Source: Narcine bancroftii | Taxonomy: Eukaryota | Direction of reading: 5' to 3' | Assembly: GCF_036971445.1 (NCBI RefSeq) | Contig: NC_091470.1 | Location: forward strand, 192,758,001 to 192,822,000 | DNA: 64,000 bases | Shown: one piece after another, positions 8,250 through 58,064 of the stretch | Numbering within the stretch: position 1 is the stretch's first letter | Layout: every line of letters begins with the position of its first letter | Made by a program: the position numbers and the translations under genes | The notes under the pieces: generated by a model | What the model was told of the DNA's origin: nothing | Seen by the model: the letters and a program-made list of their open reading frames with translations, nothing else | Databases searched by the model: none

Positions 8250-8558
8250 TTTCTTTGGCTTGGCTTCACGGACGAAGATTTATGGAGGGGTATGTCCACG
8301 TCTGCTGCAGGCTCGTTGGTGACTGACAAGTCCGATGTGGGACAGGCAGGCACGGTTGCAGTGGTTGCAAGGGAAAATTGGTTGGTTGGGTGTTGGGTTT
8401 TTCCTCCTTTGTCTTTTGTCAGTGAGGTGGGCTCTGCGGTCTTCTTCAAAGGAGGTTGCTGCCCGCCGAACTGTGAGGCGCCAAGATGCACGGTTGGAGG
8501 GGATATCAGCCCACTGGCGGTGGTCAATGTGGCAGGCACCAAGAGATTTCTTTAAGCA
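8250..8558 (-). mobile_element. 5'-truncated RTE-clade LINE 3' end inserted in CR1
   Basis: Reverse complement of the distal ~310 bp of the RTE copy at 53116-53804; tail gccaagccaaagaaag; flanked by imperfect tttgcatcagt / tttgcgtcagt. Confidence 0.88.
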
Positions 8559-12486: not shown

Positions 12487-12550
12487 TTATGTTGTCAGCC
12501 CATGGATTGGGACCCCCTCCAGTTCCTGCGCCTGTCGCAGTTCCTTCATC
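12487..12550 (-). CDS. CAMTA2: CAMTA2 terminal coding exon MKELRQAQELEGVPIHGLTT*
   Basis: tcttatctcttacag acceptor, phase 2 entry, TAA at 12489-12487; resembles the mammalian CAMTA2 end MRELKQNQELEGLPQPGLAT*. Confidence 0.92.
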
Positions 12551-15500
12551 CTGTAAGAGATAAGACAACACGAATGGACAGCGTCAATGTGTTTGGAACA
12601 CGTCCCCCAGTGAGGGTCAGTTCGTGGGACCCATCCCCAGTGAGGGTCAGCGTGTGGGACCCTTCCACTGAGGGTTAGCGTGCGAGACCTGTCCCCCGAG
12701 GGTTAGCGCGTGGGACCCGTTCCCCCAGTGAGAGTCAGTGTGTGTGGTACCTGACAATCTGAGGGTTAGCGTGGGGGTCCCGCCCCCAGGAGGGTGTGTG
12801 GAACCAATCCTCCAGAGGGTTAGAGTGTGGGACCCGTTCCCCAGTGAGGGTCAGTGTGTTTGAGACTTGACCCCTCGAGGGTTTGCGTGTGGGACCCAAC
12901 CCCTGAGGGTTAGCGTGTGGTACCCACCCGAGTGAGGATCAGTGTGTGTGTGCGACCCATCCCCCAGTGAGGGTCAGTATGTGTGCGGCCTGACCCCCCG
13001 AGAGTTAGCGTGTGGGATCCGACCACCCGAGTGTTAGCGTGTGGCTCCGATTACCCACAGGAGACCAGCCCCCGCGAGGGTTAGTGTGTGGGACCCGTCC
13101 CCAGTGAGGGTCAGTATGTGCGGGACCTGACCCCCCAAGGGTTAGTGTGTGGGACCCATTCCCCCCAGGAGACCAGTCACCCCGAGGGTTAGTGTGTGGG
13201 ACCCGTCCCCCAGTGAGAGTCAGTGTGTGTGGGACCTGTCCCCCAGTGAGGTTCAGTATGTGCGGGACCTGACCCCCCCCGAGGGTTAGTGTGTGGGACC
13301 CGTTCCCCCGAGGAGACCCATGCCCTCGAGGGTTAGTGCTTGGGACCTGTCCCCAGTGAAGATCAGCATGTGGGACCTGTCCCCCAGTAAGGTTCAGCGT
13401 GTGGGACCCGTACCCTGAGATTTAGCCCAAGGGTTAGCGTGTGGGATCCACCCGCCCGAGGGTTAGCGTGTGGCACCCATTACCCCCAGGAGACAGGCCC
13501 CCTGAGAGTTAGTGTGGAACCCGTCCCCCAGTGAGAATAAGTGTGTGTGGGACCTGTCCTCCTGTGAGGGTCAGTATGTGCGGGACCTGACCCCCCGAGG
13601 GTTAGTGTGTGGGACCCATTCCCCCGAGGAGACCCGTCCCCCCGAGGGTTAGTGCTTGGGACACGTCCCCCAGAGAGAGTCAACATGTGGGACCCGTCCC
13701 CCAGTGAGTCAGTGTGTGTGGGACCTATCCCCCAGTGAGGGTCAGTATGTGTGGGACCCGTACCCACGAGGGTTAGCGTGTGGGACCCATCCCCACCGAG
13801 GATTAGCGTGTGGGAGCCATTCGCACGAGGGTTTGCTTGTGGGATCTGTCCCCCCAAGGGTTCATGTGTTGGATCAGACCCCCCCGAGGGTTAGTGTGTG
13901 GGACCCGTTCCCCCGAGGAGACACGTCCCCCCGAGGGTTAGTGCTTGGGACACGTCCCCCAGAGAGAGTCAGCATGTGGGACCCGTCCCCCAGTGAGTCA
14001 GTGTGTGTGGGACCTATCCCCCAGTGAGGGTCAGTATGTGTGGGATCTGTCCCCCCCAAGGGTTCGTGTGTGGGACCTGTCCCCCCGAGGGTTAATGTGT
14101 GGGAACTGTTTCCCCAGTGAAGGTCAGCATGTGAGGGACCTGACCTCCTGAGGGTTAGCGTGTGGGGCCCTCCCCCGAGGGTTAGTGTGTGGGACCTGTT
14201 CCACAGTGAGGGTCAGCATGTGGAACTCGTCCCCTAGTGAGGGTCAGCGTGTGGGACTCGTACCCCGAGATTTAGCGTGTAGGACCCATCCCCTCAGAGG
14301 GTTAGTGTGTGGGACCTGTCCCCCAGTGATGGTCAGTATGTGTGGGACCCATCCCCCACGAGGGTTAGCGTGTAGGCCCCCCCCCCCGAGGGTTTGTGTG
14401 TGGGACCCATCCTCCCGAGTGTTAGTGTGGGATCCGTCCCCCAGTGAGGGTCAGCGGGTGGGACCCATCCCCACGAGTTTTAGTGGTTGGGACCCATCCC
14501 CCAGTGAGGGTCAGCGTGTTTTGGAATTGACCCCCCGAGAGATTGCGTGTGGGGACCCGCCCACCCAAGAGTTAGTGTGTGGGACCTGCCCCAAATGAGG
14601 GTCATTGTGTGTGGGACCCATCCCCCAGTGAGGGTCAGCGTGTGGGACCCATACCCCGAGATTAAGTGTGTGGGACCCATACACCCCGAGGATTAGCGTG
14701 TGGGACCCGTAACCAGTGAGATTCAGTGTGTGTGGGACCTGACCCTCTGAGGGTTAGCGTGAGGGACCCGTCCCCACGAGGGTGTGTGGGACCCATACTC
14801 CCGAGGGTTAGAGTGTGGGACCCGTTCCCCAGTGATGGTCAGTGTGTTTGAGACTTGACCCCCGAGGGTTTGCGTTTGGGACCCACCCCCCTGAGGGTTA
14901 GTGTATGGGACCCGACCCCAGTGAGGGTCAGTGTGTGTGTGCCAACTAAACGCCCCGAGAGTTAGCATGTGGGATCCGCCCCCCCAAGTGTTAGTGTATG
15001 GGACCCGTTCCCCCGAGGAGACCAGCCCCCCCAAGGTTTAGTGTGAGGGACCCGTCCCTCAGTGAGTCAGTGTGTGTGGGACCTATCCCCCAGTGAGGGT
15101 CAGTATGTGTGGGACCCGTACCCCCGAGGGTTAGCGTGTGGGACCCATCCCCTCCGAGGATTAGCGTGTGGGAGCCATTCGCACGAGGGTTAGCTTGTGG
15201 GATCTGTCCCCCCAAGGGTTCGTGTGTGGGACCTGACCCCCCGAGGGTTAGTGTGTGGGACCCGTTCCCCCGAGGAGACCCGTCCCCCCCGAGGGTTAGT
15301 GCTTGGGACACGTCCCCCAGAGTAGTCAGCATGTGGGACCTGTCCCCCAGTGAGTCAGTGTGTGTGGGACCTATCCCCCAGTGAGGGTCAGTATGTGTGG
15401 GATCTGTCCCCCCAAGGGTTCGTGTGTGGGACCTGTCCCCCCGAGGGTTAATGTGTGGGAACTGTCCCCCAGTGAAGGTCAGCATGTGAGGGACCTGACC

Positions 15501-18500
15501 TCCCGAGGGTTAGTGTGTGGGGCCCTCCCCCGAGGGTTAGTGTGTGGGACCTGTTCCACAGTGAGGGTCAGCATGTGGAACCCGTCCCCTAGTGAGGGTC
15601 AGCGTGTGGGACTCGTACCCCGAGATTTAGCGTGTGTAACCCATCCCCTCCGAGGGTTAGCGTGTGGGACCCGTCCCCCAGTGAGAGACAGTGTGTATGG
15701 GACATTACTCTCTGAGGGTTAGCATGGGGGACCCACCCACCACCGAGTGTTAGTGTGGGATCCGTCCCCCAGTAAGGGTCAGCGGGTGGGACCCATCCCC
15801 CCGAGGTTTAGTGGTTGGGACCCATCCCCCAGTGAGGGTCAGCGTGTTTTGGACTTGACCCCCCGAGAGATTGCGTGTGGGACCCACCCACCCAAGGGTT
15901 AGTGTGTGGGACCTGCCCCCAATGAGGGTCATTGTGTGTGGGACCCATCCCCCAGTGAGGGTCAGCGTGTGGGACCCATACCCCGAGATTAAGTGTGTGG
16001 GACCCATACACCCCGAGGATTAGTGTGTGGGATCCGTAACCAGTGAGATTCAGTGTGTGTGGGACCTGACCCTCTGAGGGTTAGCGTGAGGGACCCGTCC
16101 CCACGAGGGAGTGTGGGACCCATACTCCCGAGGGTTAGAGTGTGGGACCCGTTCCCCAGTGATGGTCAGTGTGTTTGAGACTTGACCCCCGAGGGTTTGC
16201 GTTTGGGACCCACCCCCCTGAGGGTTAGTGTGTGGGACCCGACCCCAGTGAGGGTCAGTGTGTGTGTGCGACCTAAACCCCCCGAGAGTTAGCATGTGGG
16301 ATCCGCGCCCCCGAGTCTTAGTGTGTGGGACCCGTTCCCCCGAGGAGACCAGCCCCCCCAAGGTTTAGTGTGAGGGACCCGTCCCCAGTGAGAGTCAGTG
16401 TGTGTGGGACCAGTCCCCCAGTGAGGGTCAGTATGTGCGGGACCTGACCCCCCGAGAGTTAGCATGTGGGATCCGCCCCCCCGTGTGTTAGCGTGTGGCA
16501 CCCATTACCCCCAGGAGACCAGCCCCACCGAGGGTTAGTTTGTGGGTCCCGTCCCCAGTGAGAGTTAATGTGTGTGGGACCTGTCCCCCAGTGAGGGTCA
16601 GTATGTGCGGGACCTGACCCCTTGAGGGTTAGTGTGTGGGACCCGCCCCCAGGTGAGGGTCAGTGTGTATGGGACCCGTCCTCAAGTGAAGGTCAGTGTG
16701 TGTGGGACCCGTTCCCCAGTGAGGGTCAGAATGTGTGGGACCTGACCCCCCCCCGAGTGTTAGCGTGTGGGATCCGCCTGTCCGAGGGTTAGTGTGTGGC
16801 ACCCATTACCCCCAGGTGACCAGCCTCCGAGAGTTAGTGTGTGGGACCCGTCCCCCAGTGAGAGTCAGTGTGTGTGGGACCTGTCCTCCTTTGAGGGTCA
16901 GTATGTGCAGGACCTGACCCCCCGAGGATTAGTGTGTGGGACCCGTTCCCCCGAGGAGACCCGTCCCCCCGAGGGTTAGCGTGTGGGTCCCATTCCCTCC
17001 GAGGATTAGCGTGTGGGAGCCATTCCCATGAGGGTTAGCATGTGGCACCTGTCCCCCTGAGGGTTAGTGTGTGGGACCTGTCCCCCTAAGGGTCAATGTG
17101 TGGGAACTGTTCCCCAGTGAAGGTCAGCATGTGTGGGACTTTACCTCCCGAGGGTTAGCGTATGGGGCCTTCCCCCGAGGGTTAGTGTGCGTGACCCGTT
17201 CCACAGTGAGGGCCAGCATGTGGAACTCGTCCCCCAGTGAGGGTCAGCGTGTGGGACCCATACCCCGAGATTTAGCGTGTGGGACCCATCCCCTCCGAGG
17301 GTTAGCGTGTGGGACCCGTCCCCCAGTGAGAGACAGTGTGTATGGGACATTACCCTCTGAGGGTTAGCGTGGGGGACCCACCACACTCGAGGGTTAGTGT
17401 GTGGGACCTGTCCCCTAGTGATGGTCAGTATGTGTGGGACCTGACCCCACGAGGGTTAGTGTGTAGGCCCCCCCCCCCGAGAGTTAGTGTGTGGGACCCA
17501 TCCTCCCGAGTGTTAGTGTGGGATCTGTCCCCCAATGAGTGTCAGCGTGTGGGACCCATACCCTGAGATTTAGCATGTGGGACCCATCCACCCCGATGGT
17601 TAGCGTGTGGGACTCGTCCCCCAGTGAGATTCAGTGTGTGTGGGACATTACCCTCTGAGAGTTAGTGTTTGGGACCCATCTCCCAGTGAGAGTCAGTGTG
17701 TGTGGGACCTGACCCTCTGAGAGTTGGTGTGGGAAACGCCCCCCACCCCCCGAGGGTTAGTTTGTGGGTCCCATCCCCCGAGGGTTAGTGTGTGGGACCC
17801 GTTCCCCAGTGAGGGTCAGTGAGTTTGGGACGATCCCCCGAGGGTTTGCGTGTGGGACCCGCCCCCCCCAAGGGTTAGTGTGTGGGACCCGCCCCCAATG
17901 AGGGTCAGTATATGTGGGAAGTGACGCCCCAAGGGTTAGCGTGTGGGACCCATTCCCCCCAGGAGACCAGTCACCCCGAGGGTTAGTGTGTGGGACCTGT
18001 CCCCCAGTGAGAGTCAGTGTGTGTGGACCTGTCCCCCAGTGAGGTTCAGTATGTGCGGGACCTGACCCCCCGAGGGTTAGTGTGTGGGACCCGTTCCCCC
18101 GAGGAGAACCATGCCCTCGAGGGTTAGTGCTTGGGACCTGTCCCCAGTGAAGGTCAGCATGTGGGACTGTCCCTCAGTAAGGTTGAGCGTGTGGGACCCG
18201 TACCCTGAGATTTAGCCCGAGGGTTAGCGTGTGGGACTCATCCCTCCGAGGGTTAGCGTGTGGGACTCATCCCCTCCGAGGATTAGCGTGTGGGAGCCAT
18301 TCGCACGAGGGTTATCTTGTGGGATCTGTCCCCCAAAGGGTTAGTGTGTGGGACCTGTCCCCCCAAGGGTTAATGTGTGGGAACTGTCCCCCAGTGAGGT
18401 CAGCATGTGAGGGACCTGACCTCCCGGGAGTTAGCGTATGGGGCCCTCCCCCGAGGGTTAGTGTGTGGGACCTGTTCCACAGTGATGGTCAGCATGTGGG

Positions 18501-21500
18501 ACTCGTTACCCGAGATTTAGCGTGTGGGACCCATCCCCTCTTGAGGTTAGCGTGTGAGACCCCGTCCCGCAGTGAGAGACAGTGTGTATGGGACATTACC
18601 CTCTGAGGGTTAGCGTGGGGACCCACCCACCCCCGAAAGTTAGTTTGTGGGACCTGCCCTCCAGTGAGGGTGAGTATATGTGGGATCAGACCCCCCGAGG
18701 GTTAGTGTGTGGGACCCGTCCCCCAGTGAGAGTCTGTGTGTGTTTGTGGGACGTGTCCCCCAGTGAGGGTCGGTATGTGCGGGACCTGACCCCCCGAGGG
18801 TTAGTGCTTGGGACCCATTCCCCAGTGAGGGTCAGTGTGTTTGGGACTTGTCGCCCCGAGGGTTTGCGTGTGGGTCCCACCCCCCTGAGGTTTAGTGTGT
18901 GGGACCCGCCCCCCAGTGAGGGTCAGTGTGTGTGGGACCCATCCCCCAGTGAGGGTCAGTAAGTGTGGGATTTGACCCCCCCGAGGGTTAGTGTGGGATC
19001 CGCCCTCCTGAGCATTAGCATGTGGCACCTATTACCCCCAGTAGACCACCCCCCCCCACCCCGAGGGTTAGTGTGTGGGACCCAACCCCCAGAGAGAGTC
19101 ATTGTGTGTGGGACCTGTCCCCCAGTGAGGGTCAGTATGTGCGGGACCTGACCCCCCGAGGGTTAAGTGTGGGACCGGTTTCCCTGAGTAGATTCGTCCT
19201 CCCGAGAGTTCTGCTTGGGACCCGTCCCCCAGTGAGTGTCAGCCTGTGGGACCTGACCCCATTGAGGGTCAGTTTCTGCGGGACCTGACCCCTTGAGAAT
19301 CAGTGTGTGGGTCACGTCCCCCCGAGGTTTAGTGCTTGGGACCCATCCCCCAGTGAGGGTCAGCATGAGCGACCCGTACCCCAAGAATTAGGGTGTGGGA
19401 CCCATCCACCCCAATGTTTAGCGTGTGCGAGCCATCCCCCCGAGGGTTAGGATGTGGGACCCGTCCCTCGACATTTAGTATGTGGGACCCATCCATCCTG
19501 AGGATTAGCGTGTGGGAACCATTCCCCAGTGAGTGTCAGTGAGTTTTGGACTTGACCCCTCCGAGGGTTTGCATGTGGGACCTGCCCCCCCAAGGATTAG
19601 TGTGTGGGACCTGCCCCCCCAGTGAGGGTCAGTATATGTGGGACCCATCCCCCCGAGGGTTAGTTCTTGGGACCCGTGCCCCAATGAGGGTCAGTGTGTG
19701 TGGGACCCGTCCCCCAGTGAGTGTCAGTATGTGCGGGACCTGACGCCCCGAGGGTTAGTGTGTGGGTCCCGCCCCCCCGATGGTTAGCATGTGGGACCCA
19801 TTCCCCCCAGGAGACCAGTCCCCCCGAGGGTCAGTGTGTGGGACCCGTCCCGCAGTGAGGGTCAGTAAGTGCGGGACCTGACCCGCCGAGGGTTAGTGTG
19901 TGGGACCTGTTCCCCCGAGGACACCCGTCCCCTCGATGGTTAGTGCTTGGGACCTGTCCCCCAGTGAAGGTCAGCATGTGAGACCCGTTCCCCAAAGAGG
20001 GTCAGTGTGTGGGACCCGTACCCTGAGATTTATCGTGTGGGACCCATCCCCCCAAGGGTTAGTACTTGGGACCCGTTCCCCAGTGAGGGTCAGCGTGTGG
20101 GACCTGTCACGAGGGTTAGCACGTGGGACTCGTCCCCCAAGAGTTAGCGTGTGGGACCCATCCACCCCGAGTGTTATCGTGTGGGACCTGTTCCCCGAGG
20201 GTTTGTGTGTGGGACCCGTCTCCCAGTGAGAGTCAGTGTGTTTGGGACATGACCCTCCAAGGGTTAGCGTGGGGGACCAGCTCCCCCCACCGATGGTTAG
20301 TGTGTGGACCCCATCCCCCCGAGGGTTAGTGCTTGGGACCCGTTCCCCAGTGAGGGTCAGTGTATTTGTGACTTGACCCCCCGAGGGTTAGTGTGTGGGA
20401 CCCGTTCCCCCGAGGAGACCCGTCCCCCTGAGGGTTAGTTCTTGGGACCTGTTCCCCGGTGAGGGTCAGTGTGTTTGGGACTTGACCCCCCGAGGGTTAG
20501 TGTGTGGGATCCGCCCCCCCGAGGGTTAGCGTGTGGCACCCATTACACCCCAGGAGACCAGCCCCCTCCAGGGTTAGTGTGTGGGACCCGTCCCCCAGTG
20601 AGAGTCAGTGTGTGTGGGACCTGTCTGCCAATGAGGGTCAGTATGTGCGGGACCTGACACCCCGAGGGTTAGTGTGTGGGACCCGTTCCCCCGAGGAGAC
20701 CCATCCCCCCCAAGGGTTTGTGTGTGGAACCCGTCCCCCAGTGAGAGATAGTGTGTGTGGAACCTGACTATCTAAGTGTTAGCGTGGGGGACCCGCCCTC
20801 CCGGTGGTTAGTTTGTGGGCCCCATCGTCCCGAGGGTTAGCATTTGGGACTCGTTCCCCAGTGAGGGTCAGTGTGTTTGGGACTTGACCCCTCGAGTGTT
20901 TGCATGTGGGACCCACCCCACCAAGGGTTAGTGTGTGGGATCTTCCCCCCAGGGAGGGTCAGTAAATGTGGGACCCATCTACCCCGAGGATTAGTGTGTG
21001 GGACCCGCCCTCTAGTGAGGGTCAGTGAATTTGGGACCCTTCCCCCAGTGAGGGTCAGAATGAGTGGGACCTGACCCCCCGAGGGTTAGCGTGTGGCACC
21101 CATTACCCCCAGGAGATCAGCCCCTCCAGAGTTAGTGTGTGGGACCCGTCCCCCAGTGAGAGTCAGTATGTGCGGGACCTGACCCCCCGAGGGTTAGGTG
21201 TGGGACCCGTTCCCACGAGGAGACCCGTCCCCCCGAGGGCTAGTGATTGGGACCCGTCCCCCAGTGAGGGTCAGCATGAGGGACCCGTCCCCCAGTGAGA
21301 GTCAGTGTGTGTGGGACCTATCCCCCAGTGAGTGTCAGTATGTGCGGGACCTGACGCCCCGAGGGTTAGTGTGTGGGTCCCGCCCCCCCGATGGTTAGCG
21401 TGTGGGACCCATTCCCCCCAGGAGACCAGTCCCCCCGAGGGTTAGTGTGTGGGACCCGTTCCACCGATGGTTAGTGGTTGGGACCCGTCCCCCAGTGAGG

Positions 21501-24500
21501 GTCAACGTGTGGGACCCGTCCCGCAGTGAGGGTCAGCATGAGGGACCCATCCCCTCGAGGGTTAGTGTGTGGGACCCGTCCCCCAGTGAGAGTCAGTGTG
21601 TGTGGGACCTGTCCCCCAGTGAGGGTCAGTATGTGCGGGACCTGACCCCCCGAGGGTTAGTGTGTGGGACCCGTTCCCCCGAGGAGACCCGTCCCCTCGA
21701 GGGTTAGTGCTTGGGACCTGTCACCCAGTGAAGGTCAGCATGTGGGACCCGTCCCCCAATGAGGGTCAGCGTGTGGGACCCATACCCTGATATTTAGCGT
21801 GTGAGACCCATCCACCCTGAGGGTTAGCGTGTGGGACACATCACCAGCGTGTGGGACCTGCCCCCCTGAGGGTTGGTGCATGGGACCCGCCCCCAGTGAG
21901 GAGCAGTGTGTGGGTCCCGTCCCCCAATGAGTGTCACCGTGTGGGATCCGTCACAAGGGTTAGCATGTGGGACTCGTCCTCCGAGAGTTGGCGTTTGGGA
22001 CGCATCCACCCCGCGGGTTATCGTGTGGGACCCGTTCCCCCGAGGAGACCCGTCTCCCCTAGGGTTTGTGTGTGGAACCCGTCCCCCAGTGAGAGATAGT
22101 GTGTGTGGGACCTGACTATCTGAGGGTTAGCGTGGGGGACCCGCCCCCCCGATGGTTAGTTTGTGGGCCCCATCGCCCCGAGGGTTAGCGTGTAGGACTC
22201 GTTCCCCAGTGAGGGTCAGTGTGTTTGGGACTTGACCCCTCGAGTGTTTGCATGTGGGACCCACCCCACCAAGGATTAGTGTGTGGGACCTGCCCCCCAG
22301 GGAGGGTCAGTAAATGTGGGACCCATCCACCCCGAGGATTAGTGTGTGGGAACCACCCTCTAGTGAGGGTCAGTGAATTTGGGAACCTTCCCCCAGTGAG
22401 GGTCAGAATGTGTGGGACCTGACCCCCCGAGGGTTAGTGTGTGGAATCTGCACCCCCGAGTGTTAGCGTGTGGCACCCATTACCGCCAGGAGACCAGCCC
22501 CCTCCAGGGTTAGTGTGTGGGACCCGTCCCCCATGATAGTCAGTGTGTGTGGGAGCTGACCCTCTGAGGGTTGGCGTGGGGGACCCGCCCCCTTCCCCCC
22601 CACCGAGGGTTAGTTTGTGGGTCCAATCCTCCCGAGGGTTAGTGTGTGGGACCCGTTACCCAGTGAGGGTCAGTATATTTGCGACCTGACCCCCCGAGGG
22701 TTAGCGTGTGGGACCTGCATCCCCGAGGGTTAGCGAGTGGGATCCATTCCCCCCAGGAGATCGGTCACTTGAGGGTCAGCGTGTGGGACCCGTCCCCCAG
22801 TGAGGGCCAGCGTGTGGGACCTGTACACTGAGATTTAGCATGTGAGACCCATCCACCCCGAGGGTTAGCGTGTGGGACCCGTTCCCCAGTGAGGGTCAGT
22901 ACATGTGGGGCCTGACCCCCCCCGAGGGTTAGCGTGTGGGACCCATTTCCCCCCAGGAGACCAGACCCCTGAGGGTTAGTGTGTGGGACCCGAACCCCAT
23001 TGAGAGTCAGTGTGTGTGGGACCTGTCCCCCAGTGAGGGTCAGCGTGTGGGACCCGTCACGAGTGTTAGCACGTGGGACTCGTCTCCCGAAAGTTAGCGT
23101 GTGGGACCCATCCACCCCGAGGGTTATCGTGTGGGACCTGTTCCCCGAATGAGGGTCAGCGTGTTTGGGACTTGACCCCCTGAGGGTTTGCGTGTGGGAC
23201 CCGCCCCCCACGAGGGTTAGCGTGTGGGACCCATTCCCCCCAGGAGACCAGTCCCCCCGAGTGTTATTGTGTGTGACCCGTCCCCCAGTGAGAGTCAGTG
23301 TGCATGGGACCTGACCCCCAGTGAGTGTCAGTAAGTGCGGGACTTGACCCCCCCCGAGGGTTAGCGTGTTGGACCCATCCCCTCTTAGGATTAGCGTGTG
23401 GTAGCCATTCGCACGAGGGTTTGCTTGTGGGATCTGTCTCCTCAAGGGTTAGTGTGTGGGACCTGTCCCCCCGAGGGTTAATGTGTGGGAACTGTCCCAC
23501 AGTGAAGGTCAGCATGTGAGGGACCTGACCTCCCGAGGGTTAGCGTGTGGGGCCCTCCCCCGAGGGTTAGTGTGTGGGACCTGTTCCACAGTGAGGGTCA
23601 GCATGTGGAACTCGTCCCCTAGTGAGGGTCAGCGTGTGGGACTCGTACCCCGAGATTTAGCGTGTGGGACCCATCCCCTCCGAGGGTTAGCGTGTGATAC
23701 CCATCCCCCAGTGAGAGACAGTGTGTATGGGACATTACCCTCTGAGGGTTAGCGTGGGGGACCCACCCACCCCCGAAGGTTAGTGTGTGGGACCTGTTCC
23801 CCAGTGATGATCAGTATGTGTGGGACCCATCCCCCACGAGGGTTAGCGTGTGGGACCCATCCTCCCGAGTGTTAGTGTGGGATCCGTCCCCCAGTGAGGG
23901 TCAGCGGGTGGGACACATCCCCCCGAGTTTAGTGGTTGGGACCCATCCCCCAGTGAGGGTCAGCGTGTTTGGGACTTGACCCCCCGAGAGTTTGCGTGTG
24001 TGACCCTCCCCCCAAAGAGTTAGTTGTGGGACCCGCCCCCAATGAGGGTCATTGTTTGTGGGACCCGTCCCCCAGTGAGGGTCAGTATATGTGGGACCTG
24101 ACCCCCCGAAGGTTAGCGTGTGCGACCCGTCCCCCAAGAGTTAGCGTTCCGGACCCATCCACCCCGAGGATTAGTGTGTGGGACCCGTTTCCCCGAGGAG
24201 ACCTGTCCCCCTGAGGGTTAGGATTGGGACCCGTACCTCGACATTTAGCATGTGGGACGCATCCATCCCGAGGATTAGCATGTGGGACCCATATCCCCGA
24301 GGAGACCCGTCTCCTGTGGGTTAGTGTGTGGGACCCGTCCCCCATGATAGTCAGTGTGTGTGGGAGCTGACCCTCTGAGGGTAGGCGTGGGGTCCCGCCC
24401 CCCCCCCCCCCCCACCGAGGGTTAGTTTGTGGGTCCCATCCTCCTGAGGGTTAGTGTGTGGGACCCGTTCCCCCGAGGAGACCCGTCCCCCTGAGGGTTA

Positions 24501-27500: not shown

Positions 27501-30500
27501 TCCTCAAGGGTTAGTGTGTGGGACCTGTCCCCCCGAGGGTTAATGTGTGGGAACTGTCCCACAGTGAAGGTCAGCATGTGAGGGACCTGACCTCCCGAGG
27601 GTTAGCGTGTGGGGCCCTCCCCCGAGGGTTAGTGTGTGGGACCTGTTCCACAGTGAGGGTCAGCATGTGGAACTCGTCCCCTAGTGAGGGTCAGCGTGTG
27701 GGACTCGTACCCCGAGATTTAGCGTGTGGGACCCATCCCCTCCGAGGGTTAGCGTGTGATACCCATCCCCCAGTGAGAGACAGTGTGTATGGGACATTAC
27801 CCTCTGAGGGTTAGCGTGGGGGACCCACCCACCCCCGAAGGTTAGTGTGTGGGACCTGTTCCCCAGTGATGATCAGTATGTGTGGGACCCATCCCCCACG
27901 AGGGTCAGCGTGTGGGACCCATCCTCCCGAGTGTTAGTGTGGGATCCGTCCCCCAGTGAGGGTCAGCGGGTGGGACACATCCCCCCGAGTTTAGTGGTTG
28001 GGACCCATCCCCCAGTGAGGGTCAGCGTGTTTTGAACTTGACCCCCCGAGAGTTTGCGTGTGTGACCCTCCCCCCAAAGAGTTAGTTGTGGGACCCGCCC
28101 CCAATGAGGGTCATTGTTTGTGGGACCCGTCCCCCAGTGAGGGTCAGTATATGTGGGACCTGACCCCCCGAAGGTTAGCGTGTGCGACCCGTCCCCCAAG
28201 AGTTAGCGTTCCGGACCCATCCACCCCGAGGATTAGTGTGTGGGACCCGTTTCCCCGAGGAGACCTGTCCCCCTGAGGGTTAGGATTGGGACCCGTACCT
28301 CGACATTTAGCATGTGGGATGCATCCATCCCGAGGATTAGCATGTGGGACCCGTATCCCCGAGGAGACCCGTCTCCTGTGGGTTAGTGTGTGGGACCCGT
28401 CCCCCATGATAGTCAGTGTGTGTGGGAGCTGACCCTCTGAGGGTTGGCGTGGGGTCCCGCCCCCCCCCCCCCACCGAGGGTTAGTTTGTGGGTCCCATCC
28501 TCCTGAGGGTTAGTGTGTGGGACCCGTTACCCAGTGAGGGTCAGTATATTTGCGACCTGACCCCCCGAGGGTTAGCGTGTGGGACCTGCATCCCCGAGGG
28601 TTAGCGAGTGGGATCCATTCCCCCCAGGAGATCGGTCACCTGAGGGTCAGCGTGTGGGACCCGTCCCCCAGTGAAGGCCCCAGCGTGTGGGACCTGTACA
28701 CTGAGATTTAGCGTGTGAGACCCATCCACCCTGAGGGTTAGCGTGTGGAACCCATCCCCAGCGTGTGGGACATGTCCCCCCGAGGGTTAGTGCTTGGGAA
28801 CCCCCCCAGAGAGGGTCAGTGTGTGGGACCCGTCCTCCAATGAGGGTCAGCGTGTGGGACCCGTCACAAGGGTTAGCATGTGGGACTCGTCCCCCGAGAG
28901 TTATCGTGTGGGACCCGTTCCCCCGAGGAGACCCGTCCCCCCGAGGGTTTATGTGTGGGACCCGTCCCCCAGTAAGAGTCAGTGTGTGTGGGACCTGACC
29001 CTTCGAGGGTTAGCGTGGGTGACCAGCACCCCCCGATGGTTAGTGTGTGGGCCCCATCCCCCCGAGGGTTAGCGTGTGGGACCCGTTCCCCAGTGAGGGT
29101 CAGTACATGTGGGACCTGAACCCCCCGAGGGTTAGTGTGTGGGACCCGACCCCCCGAGGGTTAGCGTGTGGGACCCATTTCCCCCCAGGAGACCAGACCC
29201 CTGAGGGTTAGTGTGTGGGACCCGAACCCCATTGAGAGTCAGTGTGTGTGGGACCTGTCCCCCAGTGAGGGTCAGCGTATGGGACCCGTCACGAGTGTTA
29301 GCACGGGGGACTCGTCTCCCGAAAGTTAGCTTGTGGGACCCATCCACCCCGAGGGTTATCATGTGGGACCTGTTCCCCGAATGAGGGTCAGCGTGTTTGG
29401 GACTTGACCCCCTGAGGGTTTGCGTGTGGGACCCGCCCCCCCGAGGGTTAGCGTGTGGGACCCATTCCCCCCAGGAGACCAGTCCCCCCGAGGGTTATTG
29501 TGTGTGACCCGTCCACCAGTGAGAGTCAGTGTGCGTGCGACCTGTCCCCCAGTGAGTGTCAGTAAGTGCGGGACCTGACCCCCCCCGAGGGTTAGCGTGT
29601 GGGACCCATCCCCTCCGAGGATTAGCGTGTGGTAGCCATTCGCACGAGGGTTAGCTTGTGGGATCTGTCCCCCCAAGGGTTAGTGTGTGGGACCTGTCCC
29701 CCCGAGGGTTAATGTGTGGGAACTGTCCCCCAGTGAAGGTCAGCATGTGAGGGACCTGACCTCCCGAGGGTTAGCGTGTGGGGCCCTCCCCCGAGGGTTA
29801 GTGTGTGGGACCTGTTCCACAGTGAGGGTCAGCATGTGGAACTCGTCCCCTAGTGAGGGTCAGCGTGTGGGACTCGTACCCCGAGATTTAGCGTGTGGGA
29901 CCCATCCCCTCCGAGGGTTAGCGTGTGAGACCCGTCCCCCATTGAGAGACAGTGTGTATGGGACATTACCCTCTGAGGGTTAGCATGGGGGACCCACCCC
30001 CCCGATGGTTAGTTTGTGGGCCCCATCGCCCCGAGGGTTAGCGTGTGGGACCCGTTCCCCAGTGAGTGTCAGTGTGTTTGGGACTTGACCCCTCGAGGGT
30101 TTGCATGTGGGACCTGCCCCACCAAGGGTTAGTGTGTGGGACCTGCCCCACCAGGGAGGGTAAGTAAATGTGGGACCCGTCCCCCCGAGGGTTAGTGCTT
30201 GGGACCCGTCCCCCAATGAGGGTCAGCGTGTTTGGGACTTGACCACCCGAGGGTTTGCGTGTGGGACCTGCCCCCCCGAGGGTTAGCGTGTGGGACACAT
30301 TCCCCCCAGGAGACCAGTCCCCCTGAGGGTTAGTGTGTGGTACCCGTCCACCAAGGAGACCCGTCCCCTCGATGGTTAGTGCTTGGGACCCGTCCCCCAG
30401 TGAAGGTCAGCATGTGGGACCCGTTCTCCAGTGAGGGTCAGCATGTGGGACCCGTACCCTGAGATTTATCGTGTGGGACCCATCCACCCCGAGTGTTAGT

Positions 30501-33500
30501 GTGTGGGACCCGTCCCCAGCGTGTGGGACCGGTCTCCCCGAGGGTTAGTGCTTGGGTCCCGTCCCCGAGTGAGGGTCAGCGTGTGGGACCCGTCACGAGG
30601 GTTAGCATATGGGACTCGTCTCCCGAAAGTTAGCGTGTGGGACCCATCCACCCCGAGGGTTATCGTGTGGGACCCGTTCCCCCGAGGAGACCCGTCCCCC
30701 CGAGGGTTTGTGTGTGGGACCCGCTCCCCATTGAGAGTCAGTGTGTGTGGGACCTGACCCTCTGAGGGTTAGCGTGGGGGACCCGCTCCCCCCCCCGATG
30801 GTTAGTGTATGGACCCCATCCCCCCGTGGGTTAGTGCTGGGGATCCGTTCCCCAGTGTGGGTCAGTGTGTTTGTGACTTGACCCCCCCCCGAGGATTAGT
30901 GTGTGGGACCCGTTCCCCCCAGGAGACCCATCCCCCCGAGGGTTAGTGCTTGGGACCGGTTCCCCAGTGAGGGTCAGTGAGTTTGGGACTTGACACCCCC
31001 AAGGGTTTACGTGTGGGACCCACCCCCCTGAGGTTTAGTGTGTGGGACCTGCCCCCCAGTGAGGGTCAGTTAGTGTGGGACCTGTCTCCCGGTGAGGGTC
31101 AGTATGTGTGGGACCTGACCACCCCCCGAGGGTTAGTTTGTGGGATCCACCTCCCTGAGGGTTAGCGTGTGGGATCCGCCCCCCCCCCGAGGGTTAGCGT
31201 GTGGCACCCATTACCCCCAGGAGACCAGCACCCCCAAGGGTTAGTGTGTTGGATCCGTCCCCCAGTGAGAGTCAGTATGTGTGGGACATGACCCTCTGAG
31301 GGTTGCCATGGGGGACCCCCCCCCCCCCCCGACCCCACCCCGACGGTTAGTTTGTTAGTCCCATCCCCCGGAGGGTTAGTCTGTGAGACCCATTCCCCAG
31401 TGAGGGTCAGTGTGATTGGGACCTGACCCCCCGAGGGTTTGCGTGTGTGACCCGCCCCCCAAGAGTTAGTTGTGGGACCCGCCCCCAATGAGGGTCATTG
31501 TTTGTGGGACCCGTCCCCCGTGATAGTCAGTGTGTGTGGGAGCTGACCCTCTGAGGGTTGGCGTGGGGGACCCGTTACCCAGTGAGGGTCAGTATATTTG
31601 GGACCTGACTCCCCGAGGGTTAGCGAGTGGGACCCATTCCCCCCAGGAGATTGGTCACCTGAGGGTCAGTGTGTGGGACCCGTCCCCCAGTGAGGGCCAG
31701 CGTGTGGGACCTGTACACTGAGATTTAGCGAGTGAGACCCATACACCCCGAGGGTTAGCGTGTGGGTCCCATCCCCAGCGTGTGGGACACGTCCCCCCGA
31801 GGGTTAGTGCTTGGGACCCCCCCCCCAGAGAGGGTCAGTGTGTGGAACCCGTCCCCCAATGAGGGTCAGCGTGTGGGACCCGTCTCGAGGGTTAGCATGT
31901 GGGACTCGTCCCCCGAGAGTTATCGTGTGGGACCCGTTCCCCCGAGGAGACCCGTCCCCCCGAGGATTTGTGTGTGGGACCCGTCCCCCAGTAAGAGTCA
32001 ATGTGTGTGGGACCTGACCCTTTGAGGGTTAGCGTGGGTGACCAGCCCCCCACCGATGGTTAGTGTGTGGGCCCCATCCCCCCGAGGGTTAACGTGTGGG
32101 ACCCGTTCCTCAGTGAGAGTCAGTTTGTTTGGGAATAGACCCCCCGAGGGTTTGCATGTGGGACCCACCCACCCCCCGAGCGTTAGTGTGTGGGACCTGC
32201 CCCCCAGTGAGGGTCATTACATGTGGGACCTGACCCCCCGAGGGTTAGCGTGTGGGACCCGCCCCCCCAAGAGTTAGCGTGTGGGACCCATTTCCCCCCA
32301 GACCAGTCCCCCTGAGGCTTATTGTGTGGGACCCGAACCCCATTGAGAGTCAGTGTGTGTGGGACCTGTCCCCCAGTGAGGGTCAGTGTGTATGTCCTGA
32401 CCCCTTGAGGGTTCGCTTGTGAGACACGTCCACCAGTGAGGGTCTGTGTGTGGGACCCATCCCCTGAAGGGTTAGTGTGTGAGACCCGCCCCCCGAGGGT
32501 TAGTGTGTGACACCCGTCCCCCCCGAGGGTCAGTGTGTGGGACCCATCCCCCAGTGAGGGTCAGTGTGTGTGGGACCTGCCCCCCCGAGGGTCAGCGTGT
32601 GGGTCCCGTCCCCCAGTGAGGGTGTGTGTGTGGGCCCTGACCCCCGGAAGGTTAGCTTGGAGACACGTCCCCCAGTGGTCAGTTTGTGGGACCGCCCCCC
32701 CCGAGGATTAGTGTGTGAGACCCGTCCCCCCAAGGGTTAGTGTGTGAGACCTGTTCTGCCCGAGGCTCAGTGTGTGGCACCTGTTCCCCAGTGATGATCA
32801 GTATGTGTGGGACCCATCCCCCACGAGGGTCAGCGTGTGGGACCCATCCTCCCGAGTGTTAGTGTGGGATCCGTCCCCCAGTGAGGGTCAGCGGGTGGGA
32901 CACATCCCCCCGAGTTTAGTGGTTGGGACCCATCCCCCAGTGAGGGTCAGCGTGTTTGGAACTTGACCCCCCGAGAGTTTGCGTGTGTGACCCTCCCCCC
33001 AAAGAGTTAGTTGTGGGACCCGCCCCCAATGAGGGTCATTGTTTGTGGGACCCGTCCCCCAGTGAGGGTCAGTATATGTGGGACCTGACCCCCCGAAGGT
33101 TAGCGTGTGCGACCCGTCCCCCAAGAGTTAGCGTTCCGGACCCATCCACCCCGAGGATTAGTGTGTGGGACCCGTTTCCCCGAGGAGACCTGTCCCCCTG
33201 AGGGTTAGGATTGGGACCCGTACCTCGACATTTAGCATGTGGGATGCATCCATCCCGAGGATTAGCATGTGGGACCCGTATCCCCGAGGAGACCCGTCTC
33301 CTGTGGGTTAGTGTGTGGGACCCGTCCCCCATGATAGTCAGTGTGTGTGGGAGCTGACCCTCTGAGGGTTGGCGTGGGGTCCCGCCCCCCCCCCCCCCCC
33401 ACCGAGGGTTAGTTTGTGGGTCCCATCCTCCTGAGGGTTAGTGTGTGGGACCCGTTACCCAGTGAGGGTCAGTATATTTGCGACCTGACCCCCCGAGGGT

Positions 33501-36500
33501 TAGCGTGTGGGACCTGCATCCCCGAGGGTTAGCGAGTGGGATCCATTCCCCCCAGGAGATCGGTCACCTGAGGGTCAGCGTGTGGGACCCGTCCCCCAGT
33601 GAAGGCCCCAGCGTGTGGGACCTGTACACTGAGATTTAGCGTGTGAGACCCATCCACCCCGAGGGTTAGCGTGTGGAACCCATCCCCAGCGTGTGGGACA
33701 TGTCCCCCCGAGGGTTAGTGCTTGGGAACCCCCCCAGAGAGGGTCAGTGTGTGGGACCCGTCCTCCAATGAGGGTCAGCGTGTGGGACCCGTCACAAGGG
33801 TTAGCATGTGGGACTCGTCCCCCGAGAGTTATCGTGTGGGACCTGTTCCCCCGAGGAGACCCGTCCCCCCGAGGGTTTATGTGTGGGACCCGTCCCCCAG
33901 TAAGAGTCAGTGTGTGTGGGACCTGACCCTTCGAGGGTTAGCGTGGGTGACCAGCACCCCCCGATGGTTAGTGTGTGGGCCCCATCCCCCCGAGGGTTAG
34001 CGTGTGGGACCCGTTCCCCAGTGAGGGTCAGTACATGTGGGACCTGAACCCCCCGAGGGTTAGTGTGTGGGACCCGACCCCCCGAGGGTTAGCGTGTGGG
34101 ACCCATTTCCCCCCAGGAGACCAGACCCCTGAGGGTTAGTGTGTGGGACCCGAACCCCATTGAGAGTCAGTGTGTGTGGGACCTGTCCCCCAGTGAGGGT
34201 CAGCGTATGGGACCCGTCACGAGTGTTAGCACGGGGGACTCGTCTCCCGAAAGTTAGCTTGTGGGACCCATCCACCCCGAGGGTTATCATGTGGGACCTG
34301 TTCCCCGAATGAGGGTCAGCGTGTTTGGGACTTGACCCCCTGAGGGTTTGCGTGTGGGACCCGCCCCCCCGAGGGTTAGCGTGTGGGACCCATTCCCCCC
34401 AGGAGACCAGTCCCCCCGAGGGTTATTGTGTGTGACCCGTCCACCAGTGAGAGTCAGTGTGCGTGCGACCTGTCCCCCAGTGAGTGTCAGTAAGTGCGGG
34501 ACCTGACCCCCCCCGAGGGTTAGCGTGTGGGACCCATCCCCTCCGAGGATTAGCGTGTGGTAGCCATTCGCACGAGGGTTAGCTTGTGGGATCTGTCCCC
34601 CCAAGGGTTAGTGTGTGGGACCTGTCCCCCCGAGGGTTAATGTGTGGGAACTGTCCCCCAGTGAAGGTCAGCATGTGAGGGACCTGACCTCCCGAGGGTT
34701 AGCGTGTGGGGCCCTCCCCCGAGGGTTAGTGTGTGGGACCTGTTCCACAGTGAGGGTCAGCATGTGGAACTCGTCCCCTAGTGAGGGTCAGCGTGTGGGA
34801 CTCGTACCCCGAGATTTAGCGTGTGGGACCCATCCCCTCCGAGGGTTAGCGTGTGAGACCCGTCCCCCATTGAGAGACAGTGTGTATGGGACATTACCCT
34901 CTGAGGGTTAGCATGGGGGACCCACCCCCCCGATGGTTAGTTTGTGGGCCCCATCGCCCCGAGGGTTAGCGTGTGGGACCCGTTCCCCAGTGAGTGTCAG
35001 TGTGTTTGGGACTTGACCCCTCGAGGGTTTGCATGTGGGACCTGCCCCACCAAGGGTTAGTGTGTGGGACCTGCCCCACCAGGGAGGGTAAGTAAATGTG
35101 GGACCCGTCCCCCCGAGGGTTAGTGCTTGGGACCCGTCCCCCAATGAGGGTCAGCGTGTTTGGGACTTGACCACCCGAGGGTTTGCGTGTGGGACCTGCC
35201 CCCCCGAGGGTTAGCGTGTGGGACACATTCCCCCCAGGAGACCAGTCCCCCTGAGGGTTAGTGTGTGGTACCCGTCCACCAAGGAGACCCGTCCCCTCGA
35301 TGGTTAGTGCTTGGGACCCGTCCCCCAGTGAAGGTCAGCATGTGGGACCCGTTCTCCAGTGAGGGTCAGCATGTGGGACCCGTACCCTGAGATTTATCGT
35401 GTGGGACCCATCCACCCCGAGTGTTAGTGTGTGGGACCCGTCCCCAGCGTGTGGGACCGGTCTCCCCGAGGGTTAGTGCTTGGGTCCCGTCCCCGAGTGA
35501 GGGTCAGCGTGTGGGACCCGTCACGAGGGTTAGCATATGGGACTCGTCTCCCGAAAGTTAGCGTGTGGGACCCATCCACCCCGAGGGTTATCGTGTGGGA
35601 CCCGTTCCCCCGAGGAGACCCGTCCCCCCGAGGGTTTGTGTGTGGGACCCGCTCCCCATTGAGAGTCAGTGTGTGTGGGACCTGACCCTCTGAGGGTTAG
35701 CGTGGGGGACCCGCTCCCCCCCCCGATGGTTAGTGTATGGACCCCATCCCCCCGTGGGTTAGTGCTGGGGATCCGTTCCCCAGTGTGGGTCAGTGTGTTT
35801 GTGACTTGACCCCCCCCCAAGGATTAGTGTGTGGGACCCGTTCCCCCCAGGAGACCCATCCCCCCGAGGGTTAGTGCTTGGGACCGGTTCCCCAGTGAGG
35901 GTCAGTGAGTTTGGGACTTGACACCCCCAAGGGTTTACGTGTGGGACCCACCCCCCTGAGGTTTAGTGTGTGGGACCTGCCCCCCAGTGAGGGTCAGTTA
36001 GTGTGGGACCTGTCTCCCGGTGAGGGTCAGTATGTGTGGGACCTGACCACCCCCCGAGGGTTAGTTTGTGGGATCCACCTCCCTGAGGGTTAGCGTGTGG
36101 GATCCGCCCCCCCCCGAGGGTTAGCGTGTGGCACCCATTACCCCCAGGAGACCAGCACCCCCAAGGGTTAGTGTGTTGGATCCGTCCCCCAGTGAGAGTC
36201 AGTGTGTGTGGGACATGACCCTCTGAGGGTTGCCATGGGGGACCCCCCCCCCCCCCGACCCCACCCCGACGGTTAGTTTGTTAGTCCCATCCCCCGGAGG
36301 GTTAGTCTGTGAGACCCATTCCCCAGTGAGGGTCAGTGTGATTGGGACCTGACCCCCCGAGGGTTTGCGTGTGTGACCCGCCCCCCAAGAGTTAGTTGTG
36401 GGACCCGCCCCCAATGAGGGTCATTGTTTGTGGGACCCGTCCCCCGTGATAGTCAGTGTGTGTGGGAGCTGACCCTCTGAGGGTTGGCGTGGGGGACCCG

Positions 36501-39500
36501 TTACCCAGTGAGGGTCAGTATATTTGGGACCTGACTCCCCGAGGGTTAGCGAGTGGGACCCATTCCCCCCAGGAGATTGGTCACCTGAGGGTCAGTGTGT
36601 GGGACCCGTCCCCCAGTGAGGGCCAGCGTGTGGGACCTGTACACTGAGATTTAGCGAGTGAGACCCATACACCCCGAGGGTTAGCGTGTGGGTCCCATCC
36701 CCAGCGTGTGGGACACGTCCCCCCGAGGGTTAGTGCTTGGGACCCCCCCCCCCAGAGAGGGTCAGTGTGTGGAACCCGTCCCCCAATGAGGGTCAGCGTG
36801 TGGGACCCGTCTCGAGGGTTAGCATGTGGGACTCGTCCCCCGAGAGTTATCGTGTGGGACCCGTTCCCCCGAGGAGACCCGTCCCCCCGAGGATTTGTGT
36901 GTGGGACCCGTCCCCCAGTAAGAGTCAGTGTGTGTGGGACCTGACCCTTTGAGGGTTAGCGTGGGTGACCAGCCCCCCACCGATGGTTAGTGTGTGGGCC
37001 CCATCCCCCCGAGGGTTAACGTGTGGGACCCGTTCCTCAGTGAGAGTCAGTTTGTTTGGGAATAGACCCCCCGAGGGTTTGCATGTGGGACCCACCCACC
37101 CCCCGAGCGTTAGTGTGTGGGACCTGCCCCCCAGTGAGGGTCATTACATGTGGGACCTGACCCCCCGAGGGTTAGCGTGTGGGACCCGCCCCCCCAAGAG
37201 TTAGCGTGTGGGACCCATTTCCCCCCAGACCAGTCCCCCTGAGGCTTATTGTGTGGGACCCGAACCCCATTGAGAGTCAGTGTGTGTGGGACCTGTCCCC
37301 CAGTGAGGGTCAGTGTGTATGTCCTGACCCCTTGAGGGTTCGCTTGTGAGACACGTCCACCAGTGAGGGTCTGTGTGTGGGACCCATCCCCTGAAGGGTT
37401 AGTGTGTGAGACCCGCCCCCCGAGGGTTAGTGTGTGACACCCGTCCCCCCCGAGGGTCAGTGTGTGGGACCCATCCCCCAGTGAGGGTCAGTGTGTGTGG
37501 GACCTGCCCCCCCGAGGGTCCCCCAGTGAGGGTGTGTGTGTGGGCCCTGACCCCCGGAAGGTTAGCTTGGAGACACGTCCCCCAGTGGTCAGTTTGTGGG
37601 ACCGCCCCCCCCGAGGATTAGTGTGTGAGACCCGTCCCCCCAAGGGTTAGTGTGTGAGACCTGTTCTGCCCGAGGCTCAGTGTGTGGCACCTGTCCCCCA
37701 GTGAGGGTCAGTGTGTGTGGGACCAGCCCCCTTCAGGGTCAGCGTGTGGGAACCGCCCCCCCACCCCCGAGGGTCCCCGACTCTGGAGGGCCGGTTCCCT
37801 ACCTATGCCGGCAGCGCCTCAGGAACCTCATGATCTTACGAGCCGCCTGGTCCTGCCGCTTGGTGAGGAACGATGCCCTGGAACAACACGAGGTCTTCAG
37901 TCCAGCCCGTATCCCCCCTCATTTCGCTGGCCCACCCCTCCCTCCCTCCACCTGCAGACGTCCCGCTGCAATGCAGCCACCAGTGGCCTCCCTACCCCCC
38001 TGCTTCACTCACTTCATCTGTTGGAGTGGCCCACCGCCGCGGTGGGCCTGCTTCAGCTTTTCATACTCCTTATAGCTGCGGTAACACTGCTGGATGAGTA
38101 CTGCGGCTCGCCGGCTCTGCTGAAACCGCTTCTGCTCGTAGTAGCTGCGGAACTTGCTCTGGATCAGGATGGCAGCCTGGGTCATCTTCTTGTACAGGGC
38201 ATACTGAAAAGAGAAACACACATTAGCCGCCAGTGCTCCATCCCACCTGCGTCCCTTGTAGCCACGAGGCAGCCTAGAATCCCATTGACCCACAGCTGAG
38301 AGTTGCGGTCAGGATCACAGCAGTTACGGAATTATGCTATTATTAATCTTTGTTATATTATATTTTAGAGAGGTAACTTGTGGGTGGGAAACACACACAA
38401 GGACACACACATACAGAGAGACACAGAACGCCATTTTGAAGAGACAGAGTGAATCCTATGACCAGCTGTAAACAGAGCCATAAAATTAGAGTTGATTATT
38501 CCATTGAAATACTGAAGACCATGAATGTTTACTCGGGAAGATATCTGGGCAAACAGAAAGCCATTTGCTTCATGAAGTGCTTTCAGGAGAAATGAAACTT
38601 GAAACAGAGCCTGTCATTATGTCATGTCATGTGATTATGACACAAGAAAGTATCTTTCATATGATCAACCAGTTTCATTGGAGGTCAGAAATGCAGTATC
38701 AGTCTGTGAGAAAGGTCTGCCATTGTGTTATCAAGGGAGGAACACAGGATCGGAAAAGATGGCCATGTCGACTGTCTTTCTTTGTTGAATGATAGCATTG
38801 CTACTGGGGCCATGGTAATGGTCATTTCGTTAAAAACCCTTGCCTGGGTTTGTGAAATCAAGTTCCATAACCTCCGTGGAAGAGAGAGGAACTGTGAAAA
38901 AAAATTCATTCGTATGAAGAAACATTTCTCTGAAAGCAACTCTACAAGAACCTGTGAGTTTTGAGAAGTCTGACAACTTAGGGCCTCACCTGCTTCATAA
39001 TTACTTTAAAGAACCCGAGTTTCAACACAAAAGATTTCTGAGAGGGATCTTTGAAATTGACTTTTCAGGATCATGCCTGAACTGTAGTGGTTAGGGATAC
39101 ACCATATGCACACACAAATGTATATATTTGTGCATAGTTAGTTTAAATGTAGCATTAAGTGAAAAATATATTATTATTAGTTTAAATAAACATTGTTTTG
39201 AAGATACCATTGTCTTAATGAATTTCTATTTCTGCTGATCTATGTCATAACAACTGTCCTCTTCTGTACACCTCAATGTGACTGTGCACCCATTCCTGAT
39301 GGACTGGTTACTCCAACCTTGCATCAACTCCCTTCTTACCTATCTCCTTACAGATCCTACCTCCCTCAACCCCCAAAGACCAAGACACCGTTTCTGAACC
39401 AGATAACCTCCCCGTCTCCCTCAATGCCCAACGACCAACACACCTCGTCCAAACCAGATAGAGAACCTCCATGTCTCCCTCAACACCCAATGACCAACAC

Positions 39501-57977: not shown

Positions 57978-58064
57978 CTGATCAAAGATGGAAGAGAACA
58001 GGGATCTGAGAGCTGGGAAAAGTGCGACACATCCACCAAAACCGTTCAATGCACAGCAAAGAAC

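Follow-up and report, generated by a model that had tools for sequence, protein, structure and literature searches.

The last intron of a ray CAMTA2 gene: a 25-kb tandem array that is spliced across and probably grew by block duplication

Long tandem repeats inside the introns of working genes have been described in humans and in birds. TRACT is an intronic variable number tandem repeat (VNTR) of human CACNA1C with a 30-bp unit, whose length ranges from 3 to over 30 kb (PMC13131567). The "sequence stuttering" of birds was found by its authors in no other vertebrates except gerbils, and copies of exon edges occur in only 3.4% of the introns of avian dot chromosomes (PMC12954441). At the level of whole chromosomes, simple tandem repeats make up a larger share of the small chromosomes of sharks (PMC10620051). 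The element described herein is the last intron of a CAMTA2-like gene of the electric ray Narcine bancroftii, which lies within a stretch of 64,000 nucleotides (NCBI RefSeq assembly GCF_036971445.1, contig NC_091470.1, positions 192,758,001 to 192,822,000 of the forward strand). This whole stretch is called the window, and positions are counted from its first letter. No description of the array in this intron or of Narcine satellite DNA was found in a literature search which left most subscription papers and bioRxiv supplements outside its reach, so that their absence is unproven; the available portions of PMC10208646 and PMC13100897 hold nothing on CAMTA2 or intronic repeats.

The last intron and its array

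The locus is a genuine intron of 25 kb that is spliced correctly. It is occupied by an old, GC-rich minisatellite of about 30 bp, which was likely enlarged by repeated tandem duplication of kilobase-sized blocks. The host gene is encoded on the minus strand, where 38203-38013, 37877-37803 and the segment starting at 12550 join in frame to give the CAMTA C-terminus. The 11 exons in the window match residues 970-1601 of the Narcine bancroftii RefSeq CAMTA2-like protein (P0001) exactly, and the top match of the IQ exon among 1,790 proteins was the RefSeq "CAMTA2-like" protein of the same species, at 100%. Sharks, rays, coelacanth, amphibians and reptiles have all conserved the C-terminal tail that the last exon specifies, and it is common to proteins named CAMTA2; by this tail and by best matches that bear the name CAMTA2, the gene is assigned, at the level of sequence, to CAMTA2. 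In Pfam, the IQ motif scored above the cut-off, and ankyrin matches on single exons fell below it. One further member of the protein cluster, P0124, proved unrelated to CAMTA2. The relevant features are as follows.

12487..12550, minus strand: coding part of the last CAMTA2 exon, 64 nt including the stop codon (stop at 12487), RMKELRQAQELEGVPIHGLTT; the same C-terminus is found in P0001, and RNA-like contigs end at 12552
12551..37802, minus strand: last intron, GT..AG, 25,252 bp, with its splice junction in a contig of run X5
12551..12578, minus strand: unique pyrimidine tract and acceptor; the last 100 nt are without any other AG
12583..12587, minus strand: predicted branch point TTGAC, with its A at 12584 (-34), in the last degenerate monomer at the position of the monomer's CTGAC; predicted from motif position and alignment only
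12579..37776, plus strand: head-to-tail array of about 800 units of 28-33 bp, with ..GGTTAG.. and ..GGTCAG.. as its two main subtypes, and of 79 longer units (44-49 bp)
37803..37877, minus strand: penultimate exon, 75 nt
38013..38203, minus strand: IQ-motif exon, 191 nt, Pfam IQ match above the cut-off
43986..57978, minus strand: eight more CAMTA2 exons with repeat-rich introns between them, an exact match to residues 970-1492 of P0001

Splicing across the array was observed in contigs from sequencing runs. Nine runs cover the region of the last exon, none of which is recorded as RNA and four of which were guessed to be RNA; four of the nine, including two of the four RNA guesses, were compared, over 11750-12850 only, that is, with 300 bp of the intron. 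X5 and X6 are RNA-like runs of one study. A contig of X5 (2,024 nt, depth 101.6) follows 12362-12552 without a difference and continues with letters that are unique in the window at 37805-37834. AG stands on either side of the cut, which accounts for the two shared bases, and the contig thus contains the exact junction of 37803 to 12550. A contig of X6 (4,863 nt, depth 203) also departs from the stretch at 12552. X9, a run of another study with another organism label, provides a 261-nt contig which crosses the acceptor (12369-12629) and a 139-nt contig within the array (12712-12850), both with 0 differences; the edge of the array at the acceptor is thus confirmed independently, by a DNA run. 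The zero depth that three runs show over 11750-12340 was produced by a filter and does not count as evidence; likewise, the depth of contigs summed across monomers was not taken as a copy number.

A sequence-only reading made earlier had proposed an intact gene that is spliced across a satellite, and the junction in X5, with the acceptor at 12550 in use, agrees with it. The same reading had placed the 75-nt penultimate exon and the 64-nt coding segment 25,252 bp apart, which is exact in coordinates and sizes, and had described both splice sites as intact; the donor reads AG/GTAGGG after 37803 and the acceptor TTACAG/G at 12551/12550. The satellite was said to run to within about 30 bp of both sites. 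The unique ends in fact measure 28 bp on the acceptor side, where the last degenerate monomer occupies 12579-12611, and about 26 bp on the donor side, where the last monomer starts at 37770-37776; counted from the last profile match, at 37761, the distance to the donor is 41 bp. The estimate of roughly 800 monomers is likewise close to three separate counts (756 anchor matches, 782 profile matches and 830 units after splitting of the long ones).

Tandem Repeats Finder covers 94% of the last intron. Almost all profile matches (779 of 782) lie on one strand, and inverted blocks were rejected on the three that remain. The largest spacing between anchors is 87 bp and the largest gap between profile matches 56 bp, which leaves no insert above about 60 bp. 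Because no gap exceeds 56 bp and BLAST of the array against the remaining window gave 0 matches, an insertion of a transposable element (TE) into the array was rejected. Searches of the window in Rfam and of the monomer pattern in metagenome contigs also gave 0 matches. An interstitial telomeric origin was rejected on a single TTAGGG in 25 kb, even though GGGTTAG occurs 239 times. The array is not a homogenised satellite with a regular higher-order repeat either: the block offsets (289, 1327, 1348-1358, 2169, 3017, 4063 and 4928 bp) are irregular, with two or few copies each. Its head-to-tail units fall within 10-60 bp and lie in a spliced intron, so that by structure it is an intronic minisatellite of the VNTR type.

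The sense strand of the array contains 0 GTRAG and 0 AATAAA or ATTAAA. GT dinucleotides with at least 5 of 7 donor matches number 5 of 1,181 on this strand versus 280 of 3,070 on the other, and YAG trinucleotides preceded by at least 10 pyrimidines in 12 positions number 0 of 340 versus 8 of 1,001; the true acceptor, counted likewise, has 10 of 12. Branch-like CTRAC motifs show the opposite bias, with 553 on the sense strand versus 82 on the other, and are present in most units. With GTRAG donor motifs, acceptors preceded by a strong pyrimidine tract and poly(A) hexamers all missing from the sense strand, the array would be tolerated, the flanking exons remaining the best splice partners.

Age and growth of the array

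The 755 units analysed comprise 430 distinct sequences. Random pairs of monomers differ by a mean edit distance of 29%, only 0.3% of pairs are identical, and the distance to the medoid is flat along the array at 21-23% (mean 22%). Because the monomers differ by 29% on average, the array is taken to be old. Block duplications are layered within it in identity classes of 85-92%, 92-98% and 99.8-99.9%, including the following.

13751..16450 (bounds approximate), plus strand: older block duplication, offset 1,327-1,358 bp, 94-98% identical
20383..28508, plus strand: tandem duplication A, copies 20383-24445 and 24446-28508, 4,063 bp, 9 substitutions, 24 bp of exact junction homology
27854..37706, plus strand: tandem duplication B, copies 27854-32778 and 32779-~37706, about 4,928 bp, 6 substitutions, 4 homopolymer indels, one 17-bp indel, 6 bp of exact junction homology

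Together, A and B (99.8-99.9% identical) contribute 9 kb, or 36% of the array. Their copies share exact runs of 2,345 and 1,974 bp, and five of the six indels inside them are changes in the length of C-runs. In the full array, 53 of 84 scan windows (63%) have a partner at 99% identity or more. Once one copy each of A and B is removed, 16,261 bp are left, in which none of 54 scan windows has such a partner and the median best match is 88.7% (best partners at 92-99% for 19, at 85-92% for 16 and below 85% for 19). The recent and rapid expansion proposed by the sequence-only reading is only partly borne out: near-exact copies are confined to the duplications A and B, and the spread of the monomers and the collapsed scan windows do not support such an expansion for the array as a whole.

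In the stretch present in three copies, copy 1 is the odd one out at five of six substituted sites, so that B likely followed A. CpG transitions make up 5 of the 14 distinct A/B substitutions while CpG holds 8.5% of bases (P about 0.005); this enrichment argues that the differences are variants rather than read errors, whether paralogous or allelic, between which it does not distinguish. The junction homologies correspond to about one monomer or less and would fit an exchange between misaligned monomers. At the mutation rate of the epaulette shark, 7e-10 per generation (PMC10587355), the upper limits on the ages of A and B would be about 1.6 and 0.9 million generations.

Taken together, the array may have grown by unequal crossing-over or repair slippage between misaligned monomers, with duplication A arising first and B later. 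The growth was likely neutral, in a GC-rich and repeat-prone gene which would descend from a small chromosome, and no function of the array is proposed. Nine kilobases of it are recent or possibly over-assembled.

The surrounding gene and its repeats

The CAMTA2-like gene is GC-rich (GC content at third codon positions, GC3, of 0.75 over 567 codons), and no neighbouring gene was found in the window. Tandem repeats occur in eight of its ten complete introns within the window, where they cover 12-94%, and cover 6% of the 12.5 kb downstream of the coding end. The proximity of a repeat to a splice site is not special in this gene, since in three of the seven other introns with repeats, one such repeat lies 22-31 bp away from the acceptor. 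The 18-bp array at 42297-43828, in the intron before the IQ exon, is 1.5 kb long, purine-rich and the most homogeneous repeat of the gene (about 75 copies, 90% matches), and reaches near the donor. A 21-bp array at 59487-61007 (about 74 copies) has higher-order periods of 390 and 465 bp and is a miniature of the block-duplication growth of the last intron. One 44-bp minisatellite family is present at 46395-46893, 47713-48270 and 58069-58527; because it is found in two introns and both orientations, it is a dispersed family rather than a local product.

The earlier statement that no TE interrupts the array holds, while the "many" TEs attributed to neighbouring introns were overstated. Dispersed repeats occur in three of the nine other complete introns, their identity as TEs is weak, and the repeats of these introns are mostly other tandem repeats (seven of nine). 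TE-type Pfam matches were obtained for 2 of 36 open reading frames (ORFs), both below the cut-off and both outside introns. One of the dispersed repeats pairs 9504-10159 with 52388-53020 at 84% and overlaps an ORF with a sub-threshold RVT_1 match; further pairs are 8252-8554 with 53494-53805 (92%) and 1447-1825 with 39607-39982 (79%). These repeats are likely fragments of long interspersed nuclear elements (LINEs). On the minus strand, 6463-7725 holds an open frame of 421 codons with a sub-threshold Pfam match resembling L1 ORF1.

Several side observations concern the gene itself. The exon ending near 51079 has an apparent GC donor (GAG/GCAAGG) at 51078. Compared with other chondrichthyan CAMTA2 proteins, P0001 lacks one residue at the end of the exon at 38013 (QQ-MK versus QQKMK) and carries lineage-specific changes at conserved positions of the IQ region. 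In the region 3' of the stop (10300-12486), the first 4.8 kb are without AATAAA and the first ATTAAA is at 10345, so that the 3' untranslated region is likely at least 2 kb long or a variant signal is used.

CAMTA2 orthologues are placed on sequence records of 13.9-29.8 Mb in sawfish, horn, zebra and sevengill sharks and coelacanth, and on records of 182-376 Mb in Hypanus, Mobula birostris and Narcine, the Narcine record being the one of 376 Mb. The karyotype of N. bancroftii (2N = 28) reflects extensive chromosome fusions (10.1101/2025.02.26.637739).

The monomer itself does not appear to be confined to the last intron. Three high-depth monomer variants from X5 and X6 (depth 72-783) were tested and all three are missing from the window; the monomer thus likely exists at other loci, other alleles of the array being a less likely source. 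Over 12600-12750, monomer-like contigs are abundant in X5 and X6, some of them deeper than the CAMTA2 mRNA contig, and the monomer family may be transcribed from other loci.

Competing explanations and comparison with known systems

Some findings weigh against an old, correctly assembled and readily tolerated array. The true donor matches the consensus at only 4 of 7 positions, and 109 GTs on the sense strand of the array are equal or better; for this reason, the splice choice likely depends on exon definition around the 75-nt exon. Cryptic sites are lacking because a single monomer is repeated in one orientation, which makes this one observation and no proof of selection; nor was shuffle-based depletion of splice motifs counted as such proof, given how few positions of a repeat are independent. 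Contig support is limited to the acceptor-side edge: no read or contig spans the array, nor even the 1.1 kb compared, and the interior, the donor-side edge and the A/B junctions lie outside the coverage. The divergence of A (0.22%) and B (0.12%) is about that of shark nucleotide diversity, which is 0.002 in the epaulette shark (PMC10587355), so that an allelic origin, real or artefactual, is possible. With such a diversity, a crossover between two alleles or a false haplotype join could yield the A/B differences at once. Finally, a single clean duplication does not account for the clustering of A's substitutions, seven of nine of which fall within the final 962 bp out of 4,001 (P about 0.001); this points to conversion or a mosaic origin.

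These findings bear most directly on the assembly. If A, B or both were two haplotypes joined in tandem by the assembler, the array would be real but 4-9 kb shorter. Allele-like differences of 0.12-0.22%, the long exact runs, the predominance of C-run indels and the lack of a spanning read in the 300 bp of intron compared would all fit such a join. Long-read assemblers, however, use overlaps that far exceed 24 or 6 bp, the only homology at the two junctions, and the older duplications of the same style, at 92-98%, cannot be haplotypes. A haplotype join is thus unlikely, and 16.3 kb of array would remain even so. An origin in one rapid and recent burst of amplification, starting from one monomer or a few, could invoke the many scan windows with near-identical partners and the absence of any TE from the array. 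That near-identity is due to two duplications only, and amplification from so few monomers is contradicted for the 16-kb core by the number of distinct units and their mean distance, which makes it very improbable. It is also very unlikely that the array is kept for a function, such as slowing CAMTA2 maturation or binding splicing factors through some 550 branch-point-like motifs. The strand bias of CTRAC and the association of long human TRACT alleles with lower expression in two tissues (PMC13131567) are in line with such a role, but CTRAC simply belongs to the monomer, and the other introns carry unrelated repeats.

A last alternative is that avian-type stuttering, an ongoing, locally born and highly length-polymorphic expansion, acts in the ray and is tied to the ancestral linkage group of the bird dot chromosomes. 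Imperfect tandems of tens of bases lie between exons only, in eight of ten introns, as in birds (PMC12954441); human CAMTA2 and ENO3 lie in one 1-Mb interval of 17p13.2 (PMC4020819), and chicken ENO3, on dot chromosome 35, is among the genes listed as showing exon stuttering. A local origin would lead one to expect the overlap of the terminal monomer with the predicted branch point, and the monomer is missing from the rest of the window, yet the three abundant RNA-like variants are not in the array. Further points speak against a locally born and polymorphic repeat, namely the two introns and two orientations of the 44-bp family and the identity of X9 over 573 bp, including 139 bp of array. 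CAMTA2 is unnamed in the available text and supplement of PMC12954441. Exon stuttering as such was rejected, as none of 22 comparisons of exons with their flanks exceeded the 42.1 bits used as the threshold in that paper and the best reached 26.5 bits; the absence of exon copies from ten introns is nevertheless weak evidence, because they are seen in just 3.4% of dot-chromosome introns (PMC12954441). Overall, this explanation appears doubtful. Of the three features that define stuttering, which include extensive length variation within a species, repetitive introns were found and exon copies were not, and the array is therefore not filed as avian stuttering; it resembles stuttering, and the cause may be shared.

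An old minisatellite enlarged by block duplication remains the preferred explanation, and by itself the array is an intronic minisatellite that is extreme but has precedents. It indicates that a vertebrate intron can be more than 99% repeat-derived and still be spliced, with less than 30 bp of unique sequence at each end, and the locus flags a possible error of 4-9 kb in ray assemblies. Beyond this, it can be speculated, tentatively, that the intron-by-intron tandem inflation known from avian dot chromosomes and gerbils is at work in rays too, affects genes of the same linkage group there, persists after fusion into a 376-Mb chromosome and has built a length-polymorphic 25-kb array whose terminal unit supplies the branch point. 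If true, instability would be an old trait that jawed vertebrates owe to this neighbourhood of genes, and neither a matter of chromosome size nor peculiar to birds, and the array offers a test case for stuttering common to birds and elasmobranchs.

Among the known systems, both size and spliceability are precedented by the CACNA1C repeat (PMC13131567) and by the satellite introns of Drosophila (PMC6508621). With TRACT, the ray array shares the unit of about 30 bp, the intronic position, a length of tens of kilobases (long TRACT alleles reach about 24 kb), variant units and a working host gene. Unlike TRACT, which is human-specific and young, its units are 29% apart, it contains kilobase-scale higher-order duplications, and it fills the intron to about 28 bp of both splice sites. 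The introns of the Drosophila Y-loop genes kl-3 and kl-5 are also nearly all satellite and transcribed through (PMC6508621), but they consist of megabases of simple satellite and depend on dedicated RNA-binding proteins in spermatocytes, whereas 25 kb is an ordinary size for a vertebrate intron and nothing indicates special machinery in the ray. The small chromosomes of sharks are similar in their high GC and simple tandem repeat content (PMC10620051), in keeping with shark and sawfish CAMTA2 records of 14-30 Mb; there, however, the evidence consists of chromosome-level statistics and a link to shorter genes, while in the ray one intron is inflated to 25 kb on a 376-Mb record after fusion. Avian stuttering likewise concerns GC-rich genes in which exon-bounded, imperfect tandems of tens of bases occupy most introns and leave the exons intact, with spans of up to 23.6 kb (PMC12954441) against the 25 kb of the ray array, and through ENO3 it likely involves the same ancestral linkage group as CAMTA2. 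The ray gene differs from it in having no exon-derived copies, a monomer that is likely common to other loci, and interspersed repeats in some of its introns.

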